The notes under the pieces: model-generated
Database searches by the model: none
What the model was told of the DNA's origin: nothing
Seen by the model: the letters and a program-made list of their open reading frames with translations, nothing else
Source: Escherichia phage AV112
Length of the DNA stretch: 64,000 nt
Direction: 5' to 3' (one strand)
Sequence record: OR352942.1
Made by a program: the position numbers and the translations under genes
Shown here: positions 14,644 through 50,188 of the stretch, piece by piece
Layout of the letters: every line of letters begins with the position of its first letter
Numbering within the stretch: the first letter of the stretch is position 1

Positions 14644-14871
14644 TCATTCTATTTCCTTTGCTGCAAATAAGGCAGCATCCAACGAATCAAATTGGTCAAC
14701 GAAATCAATATTCAATGCATCGTCATCCGTAGCATATAACCACCATTGTTTGAATTCGTATTCTAGAATAAATCCAGGACCTTCAATCTGAGGAAGACCT
14801 AGACTATTTGTACTAACTTCATAACCAGCTAGACGCAGGTCATTAATCAAAGTTTCTGTTAATACGTTCAT
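14644..14871 (-). CDS. Hypothetical protein
   Basis: 75 aa ORF upstream of gene 55 (T4 55.x region). Confidence 0.45.
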   Translation of the reverse strand: MNVLTETLINDLRLAGYEVSTNSLGLPQIEGPGFILEYEFKQWWLYATDDDALNIDFVDQFDSLDAALFAAKEIE

Positions 14872-15200
14872 TTTACCGCCTTAACAATTTTCAGGTCAAC
14901 GAATTTTTTCTTACGTTGATTTTTCATACGACGGATAGTCTTTTCAGAGATTTCATGTTTCTGATAAGCTTTAGATTCAACACCAAATGCAGCAACGTCA
15001 AATTCAGAAAGAATATATTGTACTAGAATTTCACGAATAGAATTACGTCCAATTTTCTGGTCGTGTTTTTGCATGATTTCATAAAGACGGAATTCCCACG
15101 CGTCAAGAACTTGAGGAGTAACAATATTGCCGGATTCAAGAAGAGCAACAACTTTATCGAAAGCGAAAGAATTAACTACGTTTTTGATTTTAGTAGACAT
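14868..15200 (-). CDS. Hypothetical protein
   Basis: Start placed at MSTKIKNVV, preceded by GAGGAAAATAAT-ATG; the longer ORF-track start would place the ATG inside the -10 element of the promoter repeat. Confidence 0.5.
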   Translation of the reverse strand: MSTKIKNVVNSFAFDKVVALLESGNIVTPQVLDAWEFRLYEIMQKHDQKIGRNSIREILVQYILSEFDVAAFGVESKAYQKHEISEKTIRRMKNQRKKKFVDLKIVKAVK

Positions 15201-15218
15201 ATTATTTTCCTCGGTTAT

Positions 15219-15264
15219 TTTATTATCCAATGAGAGCATTATACTCTGCTCTCAAGAGTTTGTA
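15219..15264. repeat. 46-bp exact direct repeat, copy 1 (second copy at 45853..45898)
   Basis: tttattatccaatgagagcattatactctgctctcaagagtttgta occurs identically at both sites, each about 20 nt upstream of a minus-strand start codon. Confidence 0.8.
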
Positions 15265-15266
15265 AA
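15238..15266 (-). promoter_or_regulatory. Sigma70-type early promoter inside a 46-bp repeat
   Basis: Minus strand reads TTTACA, a 17-nt spacer, then TATAAT; the -10 hexamer sits in the loop of the palindrome TGAGAGCA/TGCTCTCA. Confidence 0.55.
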
Positions 15267-15269
15267 TCG

Positions 15270-15482
15270 TTATCCGAACTTTTTAGCGCCTTTCCAGCCT
15301 TCGTACATAACTGCACAAGTCAGTAATACAGCGTGCTGGCATTCTTTGTATTTGTAAATCCAGAACCAGCGTAAAAAGTCTTCATCCTCAACACCGTTGA
15401 GTTTCATGTTGGCAAAGAATTCGGCACGTTCTTCACGAAGTTGCCATGACACAATATTTTCAGGATTCATTTTGTGTTCCAA
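15270..15482 (-). CDS. Hypothetical protein
   Basis: 70 aa ORF. Confidence 0.4.
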   Translation of the reverse strand: MEHKMNPENIVSWQLREERAEFFANMKLNGVEDEDFLRWFWIYKYKECQHAVLLTCAVMYEGWKGAKKFG

Positions 15483-31396: not shown

Positions 31397-31462
31397 AACG
31401 TTCTCCTCTAGTAAGTAAAGACTACTATAACACAACCTGAGGAGAAGTAAACTGCTAAACGC

Positions 31463-31490
31463 AAAAAAGCCCCAACCATAAGGAAGGGGC
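31463..31490 (-). terminator. Rho-independent terminator (minus strand), copy of a recurring hairpin
   Basis: Plus strand reads aaaaaa-GCCCCAACC-ataa-GGAAGGGGC; it lies downstream of rI. Confidence 0.6.
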
Positions 31491-34566: not shown

Positions 34567-35025
34567 CTAGATTTTAATCACTGCTTTAGAAGCTTTTCCT
34601 GGTAGTCGTTTACTGTTAATAATAGCCATTCTGCATTGAAGAGTCTTCATTTTGAACGCTGGATTTTCGCGACAAACTGTAAGTCCTAACCAAAGATTTC
34701 CGTCAGTTATTTCTAAACGGCCTGGGCGATATTCGACACCTTCGACAAAATCTTCATCAACATCTGGACGTGCCGGCATTGATAAAAATTCTGTAACTTC
34801 TTTAACATGATTTTTTACTTTACGAAATAATTCAAAAACGTAGTTCTCATCTATTTCTCTCTGGATGGCACGATCTAAGAGATGTTGAGAATACTTGATA
34901 TGAAAGCCTGGTAGTCCAAGAGACTTTGCAGCATCTTTTATACCGGCATTTATTTTGCGGAACTCCGTTTCAAAGATTCGACGGAGTTTATTACGGCGGA
35001 TAAAAACGTCAGAATTGATAGTCAT
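34567..35025 (-). CDS. regB: Endoribonuclease RegB
   Basis: 152 aa; MTINSDVFIRRNKLRR...YSQHLLDRAIQREIDE...RMAIINSKRLPGKASKAVIK is near-identical to recalled T4 RegB. Confidence 0.88.
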   Translation of the reverse strand: MTINSDVFIRRNKLRRIFETEFRKINAGIKDAAKSLGLPGFHIKYSQHLLDRAIQREIDENYVFELFRKVKNHVKEVTEFLSMPARPDVDEDFVEGVEYRPGRLEITDGNLWLGLTVCRENPAFKMKTLQCRMAIINSKRLPGKASKAVIKI

Positions 35026-35054
35026 TTTTTATTTCTCCTCTAGTTGACAGGTCT

Positions 35055-35083
35055 ATAGTAACACATCTAGAGGAGAAGTAAAC
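35055..35083 (-). promoter_or_regulatory. Sigma70-type early promoter upstream of regB
   Basis: Minus strand reads GTTTAC, a 17-nt spacer, then TACTAT. Confidence 0.5.
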
Positions 35084-37274: not shown

Positions 37275-37577
37275 TTATTTACCTTTAATTACTTTAGCTG
37301 CTTCGATAGCCGCTTGCTGAAGGTCATCCATCGACATACCGAATTTAGAAGCAAAGTTATCAATTTTCTTTTCGACAGCATTCAAAGGCTTGGCCTGTTT
37401 ACCTTCATTAGCGCCAGGAAGAGCGAGAATACGCTCTTTGTCAATATAAAGGCTTACAAGTTTCTTACGGTCTTTATCGGACAAATCATGAAATGAATGG
37501 GCCTTTTTATTTATAGCGGCTTCTAATTTACCTGCACTCACTCGCGCTTCAGTAATAAATTCTTGATATGTTTTCAT
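37275..37577 (-). CDS. Internal protein (IP) with capsid-targeting sequence; ipII position
   Basis: Starts MKTYQEFITEA, matching the T4 internal-protein capsid-targeting consensus MKTYQEFIAE; 100 aa as for T4 IPII. Confidence 0.65.
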   Translation of the reverse strand: MKTYQEFITEARVSAGKLEAAINKKAHSFHDLSDKDRKKLVSLYIDKERILALPGANEGKQAKPLNAVEKKIDNFASKFGMSMDDLQQAAIEAAKVIKGK

Positions 37578-37618
37578 ATGTTTCCTTTAAATGTAAATAG
37601 GCCTAAATATAGGCCTTA

Positions 37619-38197
37619 TTAATTACCACGGGCTGCATTAGCAACGGCGTAAGCGTACTGAACATTAGCGTCTTTAAACGTACCTTTAGAGGTATCTAGT
37701 TCTGCCTTAAAGCCACCTTTAGCCATAACATCGGCAAATTCTTTACGGAAGGCCATTGCATCAAGACCTTTCCATGATGATTTGTGCTTGGCGAATTCAA
37801 GACCAGCGTAGTTGACAGCCTTAGCTAATTTATTATCAATGACCCATTTACCGGCTTTAGGCACAAACACCGGGCCTTTCTGTTTAGAGAATAGTTTTAA
37901 ATTCCAGCGACGAAGATCACTGTCGGCTTTAACAAAAGCTGCGTCTAAGTTACTAGCAACAACATCTTGAATATGGCCAAATTTAAGCCCATCAACTTCA
38001 ATATTTAAATCGGTACGCCAGCGAAGTCCTTCCCAAGCGAAGGCTTTAAAATCAGAAGCTTTTGTGGCTAGATATCGTTCAAGTGGAGCAGTTTTAGGGT
38101 CAAAGCCGTTACCGCCACGATAAGTCCACTCGTCCTTATTAATGCCTTGAGCTTTTCCTGCAAAGGCCTCGGCGATAAATTCTTTATATGTTTTCAT
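37619..38197 (-). CDS. Internal protein (IP) with capsid-targeting sequence; ipIII position
   Basis: Starts MKTYKEFIAEA; 192 aa. Confidence 0.65.
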   Translation of the reverse strand: MKTYKEFIAEAFAGKAQGINKDEWTYRGGNGFDPKTAPLERYLATKASDFKAFAWEGLRWRTDLNIEVDGLKFGHIQDVVASNLDAAFVKADSDLRRWNLKLFSKQKGPVFVPKAGKWVIDNKLAKAVNYAGLEFAKHKSSWKGLDAMAFRKEFADVMAKGGFKAELDTSKGTFKDANVQYAYAVANAARGN

Positions 38198-38260
38198 TTT
38201 TGTTTCCTTGTTTGTTTTGATAGAGTAATTATACCATATTAATACTTAAGCGTAAACTGT

Positions 38261-38521
38261 TTAAGCTTTACCGCCGGAAATAATTCCGAAGTTGTTAAAA
38301 TCGTATCCAATATCGTCAACATCTACTTTAGGACTTGTAGCAACATAAGCAATTTCACTACGTTTTGCATAGGTGTTGATTTCTTTACCATCGCCACCTA
38401 AGAAAAAATACCCATTACGTTTTAATGAGCCAAAGTCTTCCGCATCACCAATGAAAGCTTTAACTTTAAATTTAGGACCTTTGGCATCTGCTTCAGCGAT
38501 AAATTCTTGATACATTTTCAT
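38261..38521 (-). CDS. Internal-protein-like small protein
   Basis: Starts MKMYQEFIAEA. Confidence 0.55.
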   Translation of the reverse strand: MKMYQEFIAEADAKGPKFKVKAFIGDAEDFGSLKRNGYFFLGGDGKEINTYAKRSEIAYVATSPKVDVDDIGYDFNNFGIISGGKA

Positions 38522-38527
38522 TTTTCC

Positions 38528-38941
38528 TTAGTAAATTGATTTACCATAGTATTTGTACCAAGTAGGACGTTGAGCAATTTTTTCATCTAAGCGTGCTTGA
38601 CTTATCGCAATGGACGCTTCGGACGGGACATAATTATTACGAAATTCGGCAGGGATGTCGGAAATATCCTGGACAGTCGTGTCCTTGATTTTGAAACCAC
38701 GTTTCAAGCATTCAGCGATTAGCTCGATTTGTCGTAAACGTAAAAATTCGAGTTTGTCGTAAAAGAATGTTACGTGGCCGGTGCCTAAGATAAATGTTGG
38801 AGAGATTTTAAAATCCTTTACACGTTTACCATTTTGAACATGTTTACGGACTGCACCGAATACACGAGGTAATTCACGATACTCAGCCATAAGATGTTGG
38901 TCGGTCAGTTCAGAAACAAGTGTTAAATTGATACGGGTCAT
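38528..38941 (-). CDS. denV: Endonuclease V (pyrimidine-dimer DNA glycosylase)
   Basis: Start trimmed to [12 protein letters not shown]; near-identical to recalled T4 DenV across its length. Confidence 0.93.
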
Positions 38942-38999: not shown

Positions 39000-39281
39000 C
39001 TATTTTTCTGAAGCGCCTGAAATATATTTTTCAAGACGTTGTTTCATCAGCGAGCCGTTCTTAGCGATTTCTTCCGGTTTATCGCACATACGCAACAAGG
39101 CTTCAAGCTTAACGATATCACTGGTGCGTTCAAATTTGCGAGTATCTATCTTACTAGCAAGTTCAGAAATACGTGCTAATAGACTTTCGGCTTCAACCAA
39201 AGCTGCACCTAGCTTAGTTGCAAATGTGTCAGTAGCTTCGTTAAGAATAGATTCTGATAAAAATTCACTATATGTTTTCAT
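39000..39281 (-). CDS. Internal-protein-like protein
   Basis: Start at [10 protein letters not shown]; its ATG overlaps the stop codon of gene e (ATGA). Confidence 0.55.
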
Positions 39282-39766
39282 ATATACGCTTTCCAAGTTC
39301 CTGTTTTAAATGTTGAGATTACGCGTTTCGCGCGATTAGGTGTCTGACGATACCATTTAGATTGGGCTAGATTTACTGCCGCTTCGTCCCAACGTTTCTG
39401 TTGAAGCATACGAAGAGAATTAGTAAAACCGGCGACGCCTGCTACACCCATTTGGAAGACCATATTGACCAGTGCACATCGACGAACCGCATCTAAAGAA
39501 TCGTATACCGGTTTAAGTTTAGCATTACCCAAGATTCCGCGAACGGCTTTATCAACGTCTTCATTAAATAACTTTTCAGCCTCATCAAGGGTAATTGTAC
39601 CGTTGCATTTACGTCCGATCATTCTGTCAAGTTCAGCTTTAGCTACGGTTAAAGACGGGTTCTTTGTTACTAAATGACCTATGCCAATCGTCCAAAAGCC
39701 TTCAGTGTCTTTGTATAAAGTCAGTCTAAGACCTTCGTCATTACGAAGCATTTCAAATATATTCAT
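39278..39766 (-). CDS. e: Endolysin (T4 lysozyme)
   Basis: Start trimmed to [15 protein letters not shown], preceded by GGGAGGTATT-ATG; near-identical to recalled T4 lysozyme. Confidence 0.95.
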
Positions 39767-40747: not shown

Positions 40748-41418
40748 TACCAGCCTTCCATAGGGAATTCCAGATAAACTTGAGCATTGACACGAATTTC
40801 ATTGGTAATCTTTTTAACTCGGTCTGTATTACGAGATACACGTCCGAACCAACGCCATCCATTACTAATTGCACGAGAACCAGTGTGCCATGTTTGCCAA
40901 TCAAACTGAAGAAGAGTACGATCTGGAGCTTCCCATTTCTCTAGTTCACCTTTTTCGATTTTTTCGAGGACTTCTTTGTGCCACTGGCGATAGATAAGTT
41001 CGCCATCAGGAATCTGACTGAACTCTGCAGTTCCTGTTGCAAAATGAGTAGGACACACATCAGCGTTAACAAGACCAAGAATATGTTCAGAATGGTAACG
41101 AGGGTTGTCATAGTCAGGTTGTCCTGCAGTAATAAAGTGTTGACCAACTGGAATATCAGGGCGTGGTACGTCATCATGGTGATAGCCTGGGATTGCAGGA
41201 TACCAACCAGGCATCAGCATGTGGACTCGTGAATCAAATACAACCTGGTCGGTGTTCCAATCATCAGGAAGATTTTGGATAAAGCTACGAGTAATTGGGC
41301 CACCATTATCAAAAGCAAAATTCAAATCGCAGTTAAAGAACATAGGCTCGTTTTTAATCTGGTTGTTTTTAATCTCATGAGCAAAACCACCTACTGCACG
41401 AGCTTGGCTATTAAACAT
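40747..41418 (-). CDS. Hypothetical protein
   Basis: 223 aa, His/Asp-rich ORF with no recognisable family. Confidence 0.5.
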   Translation of the reverse strand: MFNSQARAVGGFAHEIKNNQIKNEPMFFNCDLNFAFDNGGPITRSFIQNLPDDWNTDQVVFDSRVHMLMPGWYPAIPGYHHDDVPRPDIPVGQHFITAGQPDYDNPRYHSEHILGLVNADVCPTHFATGTAEFSQIPDGELIYRQWHKEVLEKIEKGELEKWEAPDRTLLQFDWQTWHTGSRAISNGWRWFGRVSRNTDRVKKITNEIRVNAQVYLEFPMEGW

Positions 41419-45236: not shown

Positions 45237-45830
45237 TTATTTCAAAGAGTTAATATATTCTTGTACATCAGCAGAAGTGGTTTCGACACCAGCTGGAGTG
45301 CCATTGAACGTTTCAACACGAGTCAGAGTGTCTTCGATATCAACCTTAGTCAGTGCAGCGATTTCAATTACATCGTCAGCCGTAGAGATACCAAGGGCAT
45401 TGGCTGCTCGAGTTTCACGAATGTATTCGAGTTTGATTGCCAGGTTCTGACGAGCATCGTCAAGTTCAACCACCTTACGAGCAATTTCAATTCGCATAGC
45501 AGCGTACCCGTCAGCTTTTGTATTAAGTTGTTCGGCGGTTCGACGATACAGAAGACCAAGCTTAGCATGCATGGTAACATCTTGTCCTTCAGCCAGGAGC
45601 TTACGAATTTCAAGTTCCTTAGAAGCGGCTTGCTTATTCTTTTCATTAACAAGTTCGCGAATACGTTTTTCTTCATTAATAGATTTAACAGAAGCCGTTT
45701 TTAGTTCTTTGATTTGGGTAATCAACTTATCTGCGGCTGCGTTATACTGTTCTTCGACAGTCAGATTTTTAGCCATAGCAGTACCCAGTTTAGTGCGGAT
45801 GAATTCAACAAGTTTCTTCAGTGTGTTCAT
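45237..45830 (-). CDS. Coiled-coil protein (possibly PspA/IM30-like)
   Basis: Start placed at [10 protein letters not shown]; long heptad-rich helices; the PspA resemblance is by overall pattern only. Confidence 0.4.
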
Positions 45831-45852
45831 ATTATTACCTTTCAATTGGTGG

Positions 45853-45898
45853 TTTATTATCCAATGAGAGCATTATACTCTGCTCTCAAGAGTTTGTA
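45853..45898. repeat. 46-bp exact direct repeat, copy 2 (first copy at 15219..15264)
   Basis: Identical to copy 1; contains a TATAAT hexamer in the palindrome loop on the minus strand. Confidence 0.8.
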
Positions 45899-45901
45899 CA
45901 C

Positions 45902-46183
45902 TTATTTGTACGAATTAATAATCTCTTCCATTTTATCCAGAACATGGATATCGATTATACGAGGAAGTGCCGAAAGATTAGAACCGTCGAAAGATTTAAG
46001 GTCTTCCAAAATAATATTTTCAATGGCCTTTAAAGCTTCCGCAGATTCTGATGCAGAATTAAATTCAGGAATTTCTCCAAAAAGACGTAAGAATGAACCA
46101 AAGTATTCTGCGGCGATTTCTTTAGCTTGTTCGATATCAGACTTAAACATTTTGTTTTCCTCATTTGTTGGTGGAGTAATCAT
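45902..46183 (-). CDS. Hypothetical acidic protein
   Basis: 93 aa ORF. Confidence 0.4.
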   Translation of the reverse strand: MITPPTNEENKMFKSDIEQAKEIAAEYFGSFLRLFGEIPEFNSASESAEALKAIENIILEDLKSFDGSNLSALPRIIDIHVLDKMEEIINSYK

Positions 46184-46207
46184 ATCACCATCCTTGGCGT
46201 TTGTACA

Positions 46208-46711
46208 TCATTTATTTTTAATTTTGCAAATTTTTTCTGCTTCAGCAATTGCAGCGTCAATGATGCTTTGTGCAATTTTATTACTAGTTGACCTGGCAAT
46301 CACACTAAGAACAATTTCTTTTTCTTCACCACCCCAACCCCAAGTCCTTTGTTCGTGGGTACCTTTAACTACAGCTGAAACTTCAACAGAACGTCCACCA
46401 TCAGAAGTTTTAACATCTACAACCCAATCACCATCTTTCTCTTCTACCCTTGATTTATCCCAAGAAATACTAATATATGATTCGTTGTCAATAGAAGTCG
46501 CCGGGTTTTTCTCTACCGTAAGACCTTCACTTTCCAGCCATTCAATAGTATTTGCGCATAAATCGGAGGAACACCTCATCGGGAACCGGCAAGATTTTTC
46601 ACCTTTAGATGCGGCGTTATACATCTTTTCTAAAATACGCTTTTGCACGTTTTTAAAAATAGTTTCAGCAGATTCTTCAGATTTTTTATTCAGTTCAGTA
46701 TAAAGACTCAT
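46208..46711 (-). CDS. Hypothetical protein
   Basis: 167 aa ORF. Confidence 0.45.
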   Translation of the reverse strand: MSLYTELNKKSEESAETIFKNVQKRILEKMYNAASKGEKSCRFPMRCSSDLCANTIEWLESEGLTVEKNPATSIDNESYISISWDKSRVEEKDGDWVVDVKTSDGGRSVEVSAVVKGTHEQRTWGWGGEEKEIVLSVIARSTSNKIAQSIIDAAIAEAEKICKIKNK

Positions 46712-46801
46712 AACATTTTCCTATGTTGTTGATAAGTCTATAGTATCATGTCCTTAGAAGAAGTAAACATCTTTATGAAATATTTTTATGCCCTAGATAC
46801 C

Positions 46802-46828
46802 AAAAAGCCCCAACCGTAAGGAAGGGGC
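46802..46828 (-). terminator. Rho-independent terminator (minus strand), copy of a recurring hairpin
   Basis: Plus strand reads aaaaa-GCCCCAACC-gtaa-GGAAGGGGC. Confidence 0.6.
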
Positions 46829-47299: not shown

Positions 47300-47343
47300 G
47301 TTGCTTTTCCTAAGTTAATTAACTTATCTATTTATTATTATGC

Positions 47344-47371
47344 AAAAAAGCCCCAACCTTTCGGAAGGGGC
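47344..47371 (-). terminator. Rho-independent terminator closing the tRNA/stable-RNA transcription unit
   Basis: Plus strand reads aaaaaa-GCCCCAACC-tttc-GGAAGGGGC. Confidence 0.6.
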
Positions 47372-47683: not shown

Positions 47684-47759
47684 TGGTCGAGACAGTAGGG
47701 GTCGAACCTACGACCTAGGACTTAGAAGGTCCTTGCTCTTCCTTCTGAGCTATGCCTCG
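47684..47759 (-). tRNA. tRNA-Arg (anticodon TCT)
   Basis: Manual cloverleaf: acceptor CGAGGCA/TGTCTCG, D-arm GCTC-AGAAGGAA-GAGC, anticodon loop CTTCTAA, T-arm GTAGG-TTCGACC-CCTAC, encoded CCA. Confidence 0.85.
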
Positions 47760-47763
47760 GATT

Positions 47764-47838
47764 TGGCGGACATGCATGGATTCGAACCATGGACCAATTG
47801 ATTAACAGTCAACTGCTCTACCACTGAGCTACACATCC
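47764..47838 (-). tRNA. tRNA-Asn (anticodon GTT)
   Basis: Manual cloverleaf: acceptor GGATGTG/CATGTCC, anticodon loop CTGTTAA, T-loop TTCGAAT, encoded CCA. Confidence 0.8.
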
Positions 47839-47842
47839 AAAT

Positions 47843-47929
47843 TGGTTGGGAGTGATGGAGTCGAACCACCTGAGTCGCAATGACAATGGATTTACAGTCC
47901 ACACCGCTACCTCTACGGGATAACTCCCC
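47843..47929 (-). tRNA. tRNA-Tyr (anticodon GTA), long variable arm
   Basis: Anticodon arm GTGGA-CTGTAAA-TCCAT, long variable arm, T-arm GGTGG-TTCGACT-CCATC, encoded CCA; the 5' acceptor boundary is uncertain by 1 nt (a 1:72 mismatch if the start is 47929). Confidence 0.6.
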
Positions 47930-47938
47930 AAATTAATT

Positions 47939-48013
47939 TGGTGGCCCTGGGTGGAATTGAACCACCATCTGGCGATTATGAGTCGCTTGCTTGAACCTTC
48001 CAGCTACAGGGCC
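47939..48013 (-). tRNA. tRNA with CAT anticodon (Ile-lysidine type as in T4, or Met)
   Basis: Acceptor GGCCCTG/CAGGGCC, anticodon loop CTCATAA, T-arm GGTGG-TTCAATT-CCACC, encoded CCA. Confidence 0.8.
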
Positions 48014-48014
48014 T

Positions 48015-48090
48015 TGGTGCTGATTGACGGAATTGAACCACCGACCTTCTCATTACAAGTGAGTTGCTCTACCTACTGAGCTAAATCAGC
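48015..48090 (-). tRNA. tRNA-Thr (anticodon TGT)
   Basis: Acceptor GCTGATT/AATCAGC, D-arm GCTC-AGTAGGTA-GAGC, anticodon loop CTTGTAA, encoded CCA. Confidence 0.85.
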
Positions 48091-48095
48091 AAAAC

Positions 48096-48185
48096 TGGCG
48101 GAGGCGATAGGATTTGAACCTATGAGTCGCCGGAGCGACTGCCGGTTTTCAAGACCGGTGCATTAAACCACTCTGCCACGCCTCC
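48096..48185 (-). tRNA. tRNA-Ser (anticodon TGA), type II
   Basis: Acceptor GGAGGCG/CGCCTCC, anticodon arm CCGGT-CTTGAAA-ACCGG, long variable arm, T-loop TTCAAAT, encoded CCA. Confidence 0.85.
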
Positions 48186-48187
48186 AG

Positions 48188-48261
48188 TCTCCATACAAGG
48201 ATTTGAACCTTGGACCTCCTGATCCCAAATCAGGCGCTCTACCAAACTGAGCTACACGGAG
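48188..48261 (-). tRNA. tRNA-Pro (anticodon TGG)
   Basis: Acceptor CTCCGTG/TATGGAG (C1:G72), anticodon loop TTTGGGA, T-loop TTCAAAT; CCA is not encoded. Confidence 0.8.
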
Positions 48262-48271
48262 TAAATTAAAT

Positions 48272-48345
<74 letters not shown>

Positions 48346-48350
48346 AAATT

Positions 48351-48437
48351 TGGTGCGAGAAGTGGGACTCGAACCCACAAGGAAATCATTCCGCAGCATT
48401 TTAAGTGCTGTGCCTTTACCAATTTGACCATTCTCGC
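48351..48437 (-). tRNA. tRNA-Leu (anticodon TAA), type II
   Basis: Acceptor GCGAGAA/TTCTCGC, anticodon arm CAGCA-CTTAAAA-TGCTG, long variable arm, T-arm GTGGG-TTCGAGT-CCCAC, encoded CCA. Confidence 0.85.
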
Positions 48438-48438
48438 G

Positions 48439-48511
48439 CTGGGAATAAAGGACTCGAACCTTTGCATCCTGGAATCAAAATCCAGTGCCTTACCAACTTG
48501 GCTAATTCCCA
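48439..48511 (-). tRNA. tRNA-Gln (anticodon TTG)
   Basis: Acceptor TGGGAAT/ATTCCCA (U1:A72, typical of Gln), anticodon loop TTTTGAT, T-loop TTCGAGT; CCA is not encoded; only 1 nt separates it from tRNA-Leu. Confidence 0.85.
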
Positions 48512-49524: not shown

Positions 49525-49797
49525 TCATTTTAAATAAATTGCGTATTTTTTATAGCCACCAGGCTCGTGTCGAAGACCCTTATCATTAGCAAAACGCTCA
49601 ATGTTGTTAATTTGATTCTGGTCAAGTTCAGAGATGTCAAACACGAAATAGTTACGTTTGTTACCAACTGTTACATAGTCAGTTAAATCAATACCATATA
49701 GGTAATTGATGTCAGCAATCATAGTCTTGACAGCTTTGCTAATTTTTACTTTTTCGTTAAAAGTAGCTTCATTGATAAATTCTTTAAATGTTTTCAT
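49525..49797 (-). CDS. Internal-protein-like protein with capsid-targeting sequence
   Basis: Starts MKTFKEFINEA. Confidence 0.55.
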   Translation of the reverse strand: MKTFKEFINEATFNEKVKISKAVKTMIADINYLYGIDLTDYVTVGNKRNYFVFDISELDQNQINNIERFANDKGLRHEPGGYKKYAIYLK

Positions 49798-49828
49798 TTT
49801 ATTTTCTTAATTAATTTTGATAGGACCT

Positions 49829-49858
49829 ACTATAACATAGTCCTATCAACATGTAAAC
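49829..49858 (-). promoter_or_regulatory. Sigma70-type early promoter with palindromic -10 region
   Basis: Minus strand reads GTTTAC, an 18-nt spacer, then TATAGT, within TAGGACTA/TAGGTCCTA. Confidence 0.5.
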
Positions 49859-49860
49859 TA

Positions 49861-50124
49861 TTAAATACCTGCTTCGCGCTTAACATAAGCAACATAAGCT
49901 TCGATAGCTTTCTTGCTGGTAATTTTTACCTGACCGCGTCCGTTGCCTTCTTTAGAGTTTTTCTTAACAACTACATTACCATCTTTAACACCCCATACAT
50001 GGACATAAGTACCGATGTTTCGGTCGTAGAACATTGCATGGTCGTTGTTGTAAGAGAATGATTCGTAGTTCTCTGTCAGAGTAGAAGATTGAGATTCAGC
50101 GATAAATTCTTTATACGTTTTCAT
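49861..50124 (-). CDS. Internal protein, ipI position
   Basis: Starts MKTYKEFIAES; adjacent to 57B as in T4. Confidence 0.6.
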   Translation of the reverse strand: MKTYKEFIAESQSSTLTENYESFSYNNDHAMFYDRNIGTYVHVWGVKDGNVVVKKNSKEGNGRGQVKITSKKAIEAYVAYVKREAGI

Positions 50125-50158
50125 TTTATTTCCTTGAGGTCGTTTATTTGATAGGATG

Positions 50159-50188
50159 ATAGTAACACACCATCATCCTTATGTAAAC
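50159..50188 (-). promoter_or_regulatory. Sigma70-type early promoter
   Basis: Minus strand reads GTTTAC, an 18-nt spacer, then TACTAT, within the palindrome AGGATGATGG/CCATCATCCT. Confidence 0.5.

Follow-up and report, generated by a model that had tools for sequence, protein, structure and literature searches.

An exact 46-bp repeat in a T4-like Escherichia phage, probably an early promoter cassette of the promoter-early stem-loop type with a putative RegB site

Introduction

Genomes of T4-like phages contain composite cassettes called promoter-early stem-loops (PeSLs), which have been described in RB49 and phi1 (Arbiol et al. 2010, PMC2839356) and in T4/PST and KVP40/nt-1 (Comeau et al. 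2014, PMC4122927). Here, we analyze an exact 46-bp repeat that occurs twice in a stretch of 64,000 nucleotides (nt) from Escherichia phage AV112 (OR352942.1), hereafter the window, and we propose, with a probability of roughly 75%, that this repeat is a PeSL-type composite early cassette belonging to a small T4-like subfamily. A PeSL consists of a strong early promoter preceded by a stop codon, a stem-loop usually placed between the -35 and -10 hexamers or over the -10, and a Shine-Dalgarno sequence followed by an ATG; it is present in many copies per genome, is enriched at insertions and deletions, and undergoes recombination between copies (PMC2839356, PMC4122927). Promoter and terminator or attenuator activity in vivo and the formation of mini-circles are further traits of the class. 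The promoter consensus published for T4/PST is TTTACW N17 TAYWAT (PMC4122927).

The 46-bp repeat resembles this description in its promoter, which fits TTTACW N17 TAYWAT with the same 17-nt spacing, and in a stem-loop that overlaps the -10, has a stable predicted fold, and shows covariation. It is intergenic, with a stop codon upstream and GAGG/ATG or AAGG/ATG downstream (Table 1), and it is not alone, since the genome of Escherichia phage AV113, to which the window is 100% identical, has four members of the subfamily and 15 hairpin-bearing early promoters. The repeat differs from the published elements in coming from an RB69-like (Mosigvirus) genome, in adding a RegB-type site directly past the stem, and in its stem of mixed AT/GC composition without a U tract, whereas the stems tested as terminators in RB49 are polyG/polyC. 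Neither a RegB site as a third component nor sense-strand covariation was found in the accessible parts of the Arbiol 2010 and Comeau 2014 papers.

The RegB/S1 target is an 11-nt single-stranded RNA, GGAGRAYARAA, with the T4 consensus GGAGAAUAAAA (Durand et al. 2006, PMC1702504). In T4, intergenic GGAU motifs are cut in vivo at 55.2 and motB.2, motB mRNA is efficiently cut by RegB at GGAG after infection, and 5' ends from the motB promoter have been seen by primer extension (PMC1702504). RegB-cut ends are phosphorylated by T4 polynucleotide kinase and decay from the 5' side through RNase G/E, and 3' exonucleases attack the upstream product (PMC3014915). The motB promoter is a direct homologue of the 46-bp repeat, with TTTACAAACTC, a 9-nt arm region, GAGTATAAT, a complementary arm, and then GGAGUAUAAAA; it differs in its stem (TGGGACCA), in carrying GGAG rather than GGAU, and in its downstream gene. 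Like known RegB/S1 sites, the candidate site of the repeat has GGA and an A-rich 7-mer, is intergenic, lies in an early transcript, and is predicted to be single stranded, and that of copy 1 is the T4 55.2 site itself, one of the two GGAU motifs cut in T4. Most RegB sites are Shine-Dalgarno sequences, whereas that of the repeat stands upstream of the Shine-Dalgarno, at about +4, so that a cut would not directly inactivate the ribosome binding site.

In the T4 genes e, soc, 49, and I-TevI, the promoter lies inside a hairpin; only read-through RNA folds, the promoter's own transcript lacking the 5' arm. The 3' arm of these hairpins sequesters the ribosome binding site, and their promoters are late or middle. 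In the 46-bp element, by contrast, the Shine-Dalgarno is outside the stem, whereas other early promoters of the same genome have it in the 3' arm. The cassettes also recall lambdoid morons, which are single genes with their own promoter and terminator that are mobile as a unit, except that in the AV113-like genome recombination takes place at the repeated promoter cassettes themselves.

Results

The window holds the exact 46-mer TTTATTATCCAATGAGAGCATTATACTCTGCTCTCAAGAGTTTGTA at 15219-15264 and 45853-45898, and on the minus strand, copy 1 reads cgaTTTACAaactcTTGAGAGCAgagTATAATGCTCTCAttGGATAATAAAAtaaccGAGGaaaataatATG and copy 2 reads aagTGTACAaactc...GCTCTCAttGGATAATAAACcaccaattgaAAGGtaataatATG. 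The window corresponds to positions 96000-159999 of AV113, an RB69-like Mosigvirus whose assembled genome was used for all whole-genome scans, and both repeat regions are 95-98% identical to many further Mosigvirus genomes. Allowing up to 3 mismatches, we found no third match in the 64-kb window and none in 100 shuffles. Ungapped identity between the flanks of the two copies was 27/100 and 32/100, and blastp detected no match at E<=10 between the 55.2 and e.6 proteins encoded downstream. These data confirmed the two positions given in the original prediction as well as its statement that the repeat joins unrelated genes. Copy 1 is flanked by 55.3 (DUF5490) and 55.2 (DUF7570), near the late sigma factor gene 55.

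The original prediction also described a minus-strand promoter with its -10 in the loop of an inverted repeat. The sequence supports this and assigns the repeat to the T4-type early promoters of the sigma-70 kind: TTTACA or TGTACA is followed after 17 nt by TATAAT, which amounts to 11/12 matches to the consensus. The sequence TTTACA-17-TATAAT, which had been given for both copies, holds for copy 1, but the -35 of copy 2 is TGTACA; the two copies differ there because the first two -35 bases fall outside the repeat. A stop codon precedes the -35 by 2-3 nt, and a Shine-Dalgarno and an ATG follow the promoter. The start codons, previously placed about 20 nt away, could be refined to Shine-Dalgarno-bearing starts at 15200 and 45830, which are 18 and 22 nt from the repeat. 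With a 7-nt spacing after the -10, transcription is predicted to start at A15231 in copy 1 and at A45865 in copy 2. In the AV113 record, the 55.2 coding sequence begins instead with the ATG at 15239, which overlaps both the end of the -10 and the hairpin's 3' arm and yields a 123-amino-acid product. The 55.2 proteins of relatives have 110 amino acids and begin at ATG 15200, behind the GAGG Shine-Dalgarno and downstream of the predicted transcription start, and the AV113 annotation of this start is probably an error.

The repeat contains, as predicted, an 8-bp inverted repeat, TGAGAGCA/TGCTCTCA, with an 8-nt loop. The -10 had been assigned to the loop as a whole, which is correct for TATAA, but the 3' arm begins with the last T of the hexamer. 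The stem-loop has a predicted folding energy of -13.8 kcal/mol (z = -4.1). To evaluate the stem in related sequences, we aligned 24 distinct family members without gaps; the search pattern that retrieved them placed no constraint on either arm. In this set, 96.9% of the stem cells were paired, with double changes in 5/8 stem pairs (28 cells); none of 500 shuffles reached the observed pairing or covariation score, and controls in which the partner was slid paired at only 35-57%. Read in gene orientation, the stems contained 17 G-U cells against 2 C-A cells, the latter being G-U on the other strand. The sense strand folded better than the antisense strand in 21/24 family members and in 16/20 hairpin-bearing early promoters of AV113, and the direction of this result is clear despite the relatedness of the sequences. 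Covariation and sense-strand G-U wobbles thus point to a stem selected as an RNA hairpin on the sense strand rather than as a protein operator. Rfam covariance models gave no match at E<=1 within 15150-15350, and their matches in the window were tRNAs only.

To describe the family, we scanned IMG/VR. With the 16-mer AGCAGAGTATAATGCT, most matches were chance matches in unrelated viruses, and the pattern ACAAACTC N9 GAGTATAAT, in which both arms are unspecified, was more specific; nine stemless arm variants outside T4-like contexts were dropped from the family. A genome-wide search, which had been put forward as a check of the repeat, showed four members in AV113, all on the minus strand, namely the two exact copies and two diverged ones. 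The original count of two holds for exact copies, but not for members of the family. The two further members are at AV113 65916-65961, upstream of ndd and identical over TACAAACTCTTGAGAGCAGAGTATAATGCTCTCAT, and at AV113 38212-38257, upstream of the pseT-proximal open reading frame (ORF) pseT.x, with the stem AGGAGCA/TGCTCCT, which differs by two compensated pairs; both are outside the window. In other T4-like genera, the same element was found upstream of the orthologous ndd, 55.2, pseT.x, motB, and a few other genes, and the T4 motB promoter, tagTTTACAaactcTTGGGACCAgagTATAATGGTCCCGtGGAGTATAAAA, is a family member. The -35 and -10 hexamers and the 17 nt between them do not vary from genus to genus, but the stem does: family stems, each with its matching 3' arm, include TGAGAGCA, TGGGAGCA, TGGGACCA, TGGGGTCA, TGGGGCCA, TGAGGACA, and GAGAGAT. 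Arms differ even within one genome, with TGAGAGCA and AGGAGCA in AV113 and TGGGAGCA and TGGGGTCA in one JS98-like genome. In JS98-like contigs (L016, L063, L020, L029, L054), the promoter family is embedded in a repeat of ~100 bp that extends from ~34 nt upstream (..GGTCTTTTTGGAAAGTAG) through the Shine-Dalgarno and occupies at least 3 loci per genome.

The earlier description of the repeat did not recognize what lies in its 3' third, where GGAUAAUAAA(A/C) on the minus strand conforms to the consensus for RegB/S1 cleavage. The 11-mer of copy 1, GGAUAAUAAAA, stands two nt past the stem and is the same as that upstream of T4 55.2. GGA(G/U) occurs 1-2 nt past the stem in 20/20 distinct family members, with a mean match to GGAGRAYARAA of 9.1/11, and the minus strand of the whole AV113 genome has only 44 sites that match at 9/11 or better. 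In T4, the motB leader has a single GGAG, in GGAGUAUAAAA, directly after the stem. The RegB-type site is intergenic and downstream of an early promoter, and the leaders of the promoters' own transcripts are predicted to be unstructured (-1.3 and -2.2 kcal/mol). The window encodes RegB, the endoribonuclease expected to act on the GGAU sites (Table 1). At 35026-35065, regB has an early promoter of the hairpin type and a GGAG Shine-Dalgarno followed by an A-rich run (GGAGAAAUAAAAAAUG), and this leader fits the self-cleavage by RegB that has been described in T4 and related phages.

T4 no longer has the promoter hexamers in front of 55.2 and ndd, yet at both loci it retains a hairpin with the RegB site behind it, C(UUCG)G at 55.2 and GGCCG/CGGCC followed by GGAGUAGAAAA at ndd. 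The survival of hairpin and RegB site after promoter loss thus suggests an RNA module that is independent of the promoter. At T4 40799-40859 (L136 1300-1360), the 55.3 frame runs through the site of the lost 55.2 promoter, and the coding tail of 55.3 spans the C(UUCG)G hairpin and the RegB-cleaved GGAUAAUAAAA, which places a regulatory RNA module inside a coding sequence.

We then asked how common such hairpins are among early promoters. A scan of AV113 for TTTACA-like and TATAAT-like hexamers separated by 16-18 nt and followed by a Shine-Dalgarno and an ATG yielded 39 early-promoter-like sites on the minus strand, 15 of which carried a perfect stem, 6 bp or longer, around the -10. The expected number was 1.2 (maximum 5) when spacer and downstream bases were shuffled and 2.7 when partners were swapped between promoters. 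The register of these stems is that of the 46-bp repeat, with the 5' arm in the spacer, TATAA looped, and the 3' arm beginning at the last T, while the stem sequences of other early promoters are unrelated (e.g., ATAGGACTA/TAGTCCTAT and AGGTCTAT/ATAGACCT). Read most simply, the arms occupy the sole weakly constrained positions that a very compact promoter has. Early promoters at 31404-31451 and at AV113 88865 and 75956 have long stems (7 to 13 bp) with the Shine-Dalgarno in the 3' arm, for example, CTCCAGTAGTTG...CAACTACTGGAG and TCTCCTC...GAGGAGA. To judge from their sequences, such stems would mask the ribosome binding site in read-through RNA and leave it unmasked in the promoter's own transcript.

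The copies of the repeat coincide with breakpoints relative to close relatives, a further likeness to PeSLs. A 297-bp cassette of phiE142, made of one ORF and its own hairpin promoter, is absent from the window, and the junction of this cassette falls on TACAA in the -35 (15260-15264), right at the edge of copy 1. Near copy 2, homology to phiE142 and to a related contig (L027) stops at 45907 and restarts at the -10 boundary of the next promoter (46183); because of these two breaks, we consider the intervening ORF a swapped cassette. A further homology break occurs in SA79RD at 46217-46225.

Identity within a genome was 0.90 between the 55.2 and ndd members of AV113 and 0.98 between the ndd and motB members of one JS98-like contig, compared with 0.71-0.79 at the same locus between genera. 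Copies are thus closer within a genome than at the same locus across genera, a signature of concerted evolution. As a scan of IMG/VR for paired loci returned only 5 Mosigvirus stretches, we compared six GenBank genomes instead. The two loci were exactly identical in AV113 and mogra and differed by 1-4 nt in SA79RD, phiE142, LH01, and F27, so exact identity is a state of the AV113/mogra lineage and not of the genus. The coordinates of the features are collected in Table 1.

Table 1. Positions of the two repeat copies, their parts, and associated genes in the window
Feature	Position	Strand	Remarks
Copy 1, exact 46-bp repeat	15219..15264	minus	intergenic, 55.3 to 55.2
Copy 1 -35, TTTACA	15261..15266	minus	55.3 stop codon 15270-15272, 3 nt upstream
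Copy 1 5' arm, TGAGAGCA	15247..15254	minus	within 17-nt spacer
Copy 1 -10, TATAAT	15238..15243	minus	TATAA in loop, final T opens 3' arm
Copy 1 3' arm, TGCTCTCA	15231..15238	minus	
Copy 1 putative RegB/S1 site, GGAUAAUAAAA	15218..15228	minus	10/11 vs GGAGRAYARAA
Gene 55.2 (DUF7570)	14868..15200	minus	Shine-Dalgarno GAGG 15209-15212, ATG 15198-15200
Copy 2, exact 46-bp repeat	45853..45898	minus	intergenic, upstream of e.6
Copy 2 -35, TGTACA	45895..45900	minus	upstream-ORF stop codon 45902-45904
Copy 2 5' arm, TGAGAGCA	45881..45888	minus	
Copy 2 -10, TATAAT	45872..45877	minus	
Copy 2 3' arm, TGCTCTCA	45865..45872	minus	
Copy 2 putative RegB/S1 site, GGAUAAUAAAC	45852..45862	minus	9/11 vs GGAGRAYARAA
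e.6 ortholog	45237..45830	minus	ATG 45828-45830, Shine-Dalgarno AAGG, no Pfam family
Variable one-ORF cassette	45902..46183	minus	other DNA in phiE142 and L027
Neighboring early promoter, TGTACA, 17 nt, TATGAT	46179..46207	minus	far bound of variable cassette
regB endoribonuclease gene	34567..35025	minus	PF10715, E = 8e-69

Discussion

In the mechanism that we propose, the strong sigma-70 promoter T[T/G]TACA, 17 nt, TATAAT would drive 55.2 from copy 1 and e.6 from copy 2, and the 46 bp would pack three functional elements with almost no free positions. The stem would form only in read-through RNA from the upstream gene, because the promoter's own transcript, predicted to begin with AUUGGAUAAUAAA, would start ~7 nt after the -10 and lack the 5' arm. 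Its most likely role would be to mark and protect the 3' end of the upstream message, as an attenuator or as a block to 3' exonucleases. GGAU and its A-rich tail, 2 nt past the stem, would correspond to about +4 of the own transcript. A RegB cut at GG^AU would separate the upstream from the downstream RNA and give the latter a 5'-OH end with its Shine-Dalgarno intact; the hairpin, which would then lie 4 nt away from the newly made 3' end, should shield the upstream message. Phosphorylation of the 5'-OH by T4 polynucleotide kinase would yield a 5'-monophosphate, exposing the RNA to RNase G/E, and we propose that immediate-early messages would therefore be short-lived. Recombination that homogenizes the copies would also move or delete the small gene cassettes that they flank. 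The two copies would be identical because nearly every base is under selection and because recombination homogenizes them.

Several parts of this account come from different sources, and some observations weigh against it. Sequence anatomy, family membership, stem covariation, sense-strand bias, cassette breakpoints, and the presence of regB were read directly from the genomes; motB promoter activity and cleavage by RegB, as well as GGAU cleavage at 55.2, come from the literature on the T4 homologues; and we infer the start site, cleavage in an AV113-like phage, and the role of the hairpin. A search of the available literature found no genome-wide map of RNA 5' or 3' ends for T4 or RB69. On the unfavorable side, the family sequences are related, so that the covariation cells are not independent events. 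Position 4 of the RegB-type site is a U, and only 2/30 intergenic GGAU motifs are cut in T4, the motB-GGAU being cut ~3 times more slowly than GGAG (PMC1702504). Copy 2 has in addition a C at position 11, and the cut predicted from the sequence would fall only 5 nt from the 5' end. No U tract follows the hairpin, whose tail is UUGGAUAAUAAA, and the terminator scan does not report it, which makes a terminator role doubtful. Finally, only 4/6 GenBank genomes have the same base, A or G, at the end of the 3' arm in both loci, and the evidence for ongoing gene conversion inside Mosigvirus is weak.

We considered other explanations for the repeat and its palindrome. Chance or low complexity can be dismissed: the AT-rich composition and nothing else would favor it, and the shuffles produced no match at up to 3 mismatches, while the element is conserved in hundreds of phage genomes. 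We regard it as unlikely that the hairpin is an intrinsic terminator of the upstream gene and overlaps the promoter hexamers incidentally. WebGeSTer and TransTermHP do call it a rho-independent terminator in SA79RD and SA35RD, and the stem-loop of an RB49 PeSL matched rrnB T1 as a terminator in a lacZ assay (PMC2839356); however, the stem, with its 5 G-C pairs, runs into a tail that has no U tract and gave no scan call, the -35, the -10, and their spacing are invariant across genera while the stem varies, and the T4 homologue is an active promoter. In the SA79RD record (L133 1835-1878 and L002 3156-3189), early promoters with hairpins carry the label of rho-independent terminators, and the record lists no early promoters; it appears that PeSL stems are systematically taken for terminators by automated annotation.

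Very unlikely in our view is a double-stranded DNA operator at which a dimeric, sequence-specific phage regulator would control 55.2 and e.6 together. The original prediction had suggested such a shared operator, and a perfect 8-bp inverted repeat centered on the -10 and common to several immediate-early genes would suit it, as would the fact that the mechanism of T4 early-promoter shut-off is still unexplained (PMC2988021). This suggestion could not be upheld, since the arms vary between copies in one genome and conserve no half-site, the changes in the stem are compensatory, and the G-U wobbles, almost confined to the sense strand, break the DNA symmetry. Moreover, unrelated stems occupy the same position in many other early promoters, and the T4 hairpin persists at 55.2 and ndd without a promoter. 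A related idea, to which we attach hardly any weight, is that the -10 stem-loops of ~40% of the early promoters are the missing cis-element of shut-off and act on DNA; the -10 would then be sequestered a few minutes after infection, either because the stem extrudes or through a phage factor that recognizes the structure, and the constant position of the stem with respect to the -10 would serve a function and not be a by-product of limited space.

A different question, compatible with the PeSL-type reading of the element, is what made the two copies identical. It is conceivable, though by our estimate at slightly less than even odds, that in the AV113 lineage the loss of a small ORF cassette was accompanied by copying of the e.6 or ndd core into the 55.2 promoter, leaving the exact 46 bp. 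Mosigvirus has two alleles at the 55.2 locus: type A, TATACA..GAGAGAT..TCTCTCG with an extra upstream ORF (LH01, SA79RD, phiE142), and type B, which lacks the extra ORF and whose core is the e.6 copy (AV113, mogra, F27). All four A/B core differences turn B into the e.6 state, and across genera, copies cluster by genome rather than by locus. However, it is just as likely that type B came first and gave rise to type A through a single compensated change in the stem, since the outgroups carry other stems and do not fix the direction. The 4/6 agreement at the end of the 3' arm also counts against a recent copy. Recent promoter transfer had been offered as one possible cause of the perfect identity. 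The breakpoints at the edge of the repeat and the within-genome likeness bear out recombination between copies, but not its recency: the promoter family must be old at the 55.2, ndd, pseT.x, and motB loci because it precedes the 55.2, ndd, and pseT.x orthologues in other T4-like genera, JS98-like phages included, and motB in T4. That proposal is thus at best partly right, as the cause is recombination among old copies.

The element is of an already-known type, the PeSL, and is a standard T4-like building block, not a new regulator site. A long exact repeat that links unrelated genes is thereby explained without a new regulator, through the dense packing of three elements and the recombination of copies. 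Annotation can be corrected accordingly at the AV113 55.2 start, which lies inside the promoter, and elsewhere where such hairpins are annotated as terminators. The elements also mark points at which gene cassettes are swapped in therapeutic T4-like phages. In addition, PeSL cassettes may be linked to the RegB-driven turnover of immediate-early messages (ndd, motB, 55.2, e.6), a connection that can be tested and of which we found no mention in the accessible parts of the PeSL papers (PMC2839356, PMC4122927).

Additional observations

Three near-identical (78-86%) G+C-rich hairpins with a T run are present at 31455-31490, 46793-46828, and 47336-47371 (minus strand, GCCCCTTCCTTAYGGTTGGGGCTTTTT), and from their sequence they have the appearance of canonical terminators present as repeats in their own right. 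A conserved 5' end (MKTY.EFI..) and the region upstream of it are common to six genes, at 37548-37588, 38168-38236, 38492-38560, 39252-39292, 49768-49836, and 50095-50163. These 5' ends presumably correspond to the capsid-targeting N terminus of internal-protein genes, which they resemble, and the authors of the PeSL work reportedly regard internal-protein gene loci as shuffling hot spots. Ten tRNA genes are clustered on the minus strand at 47687-48511, just upstream of the e-region cassettes.

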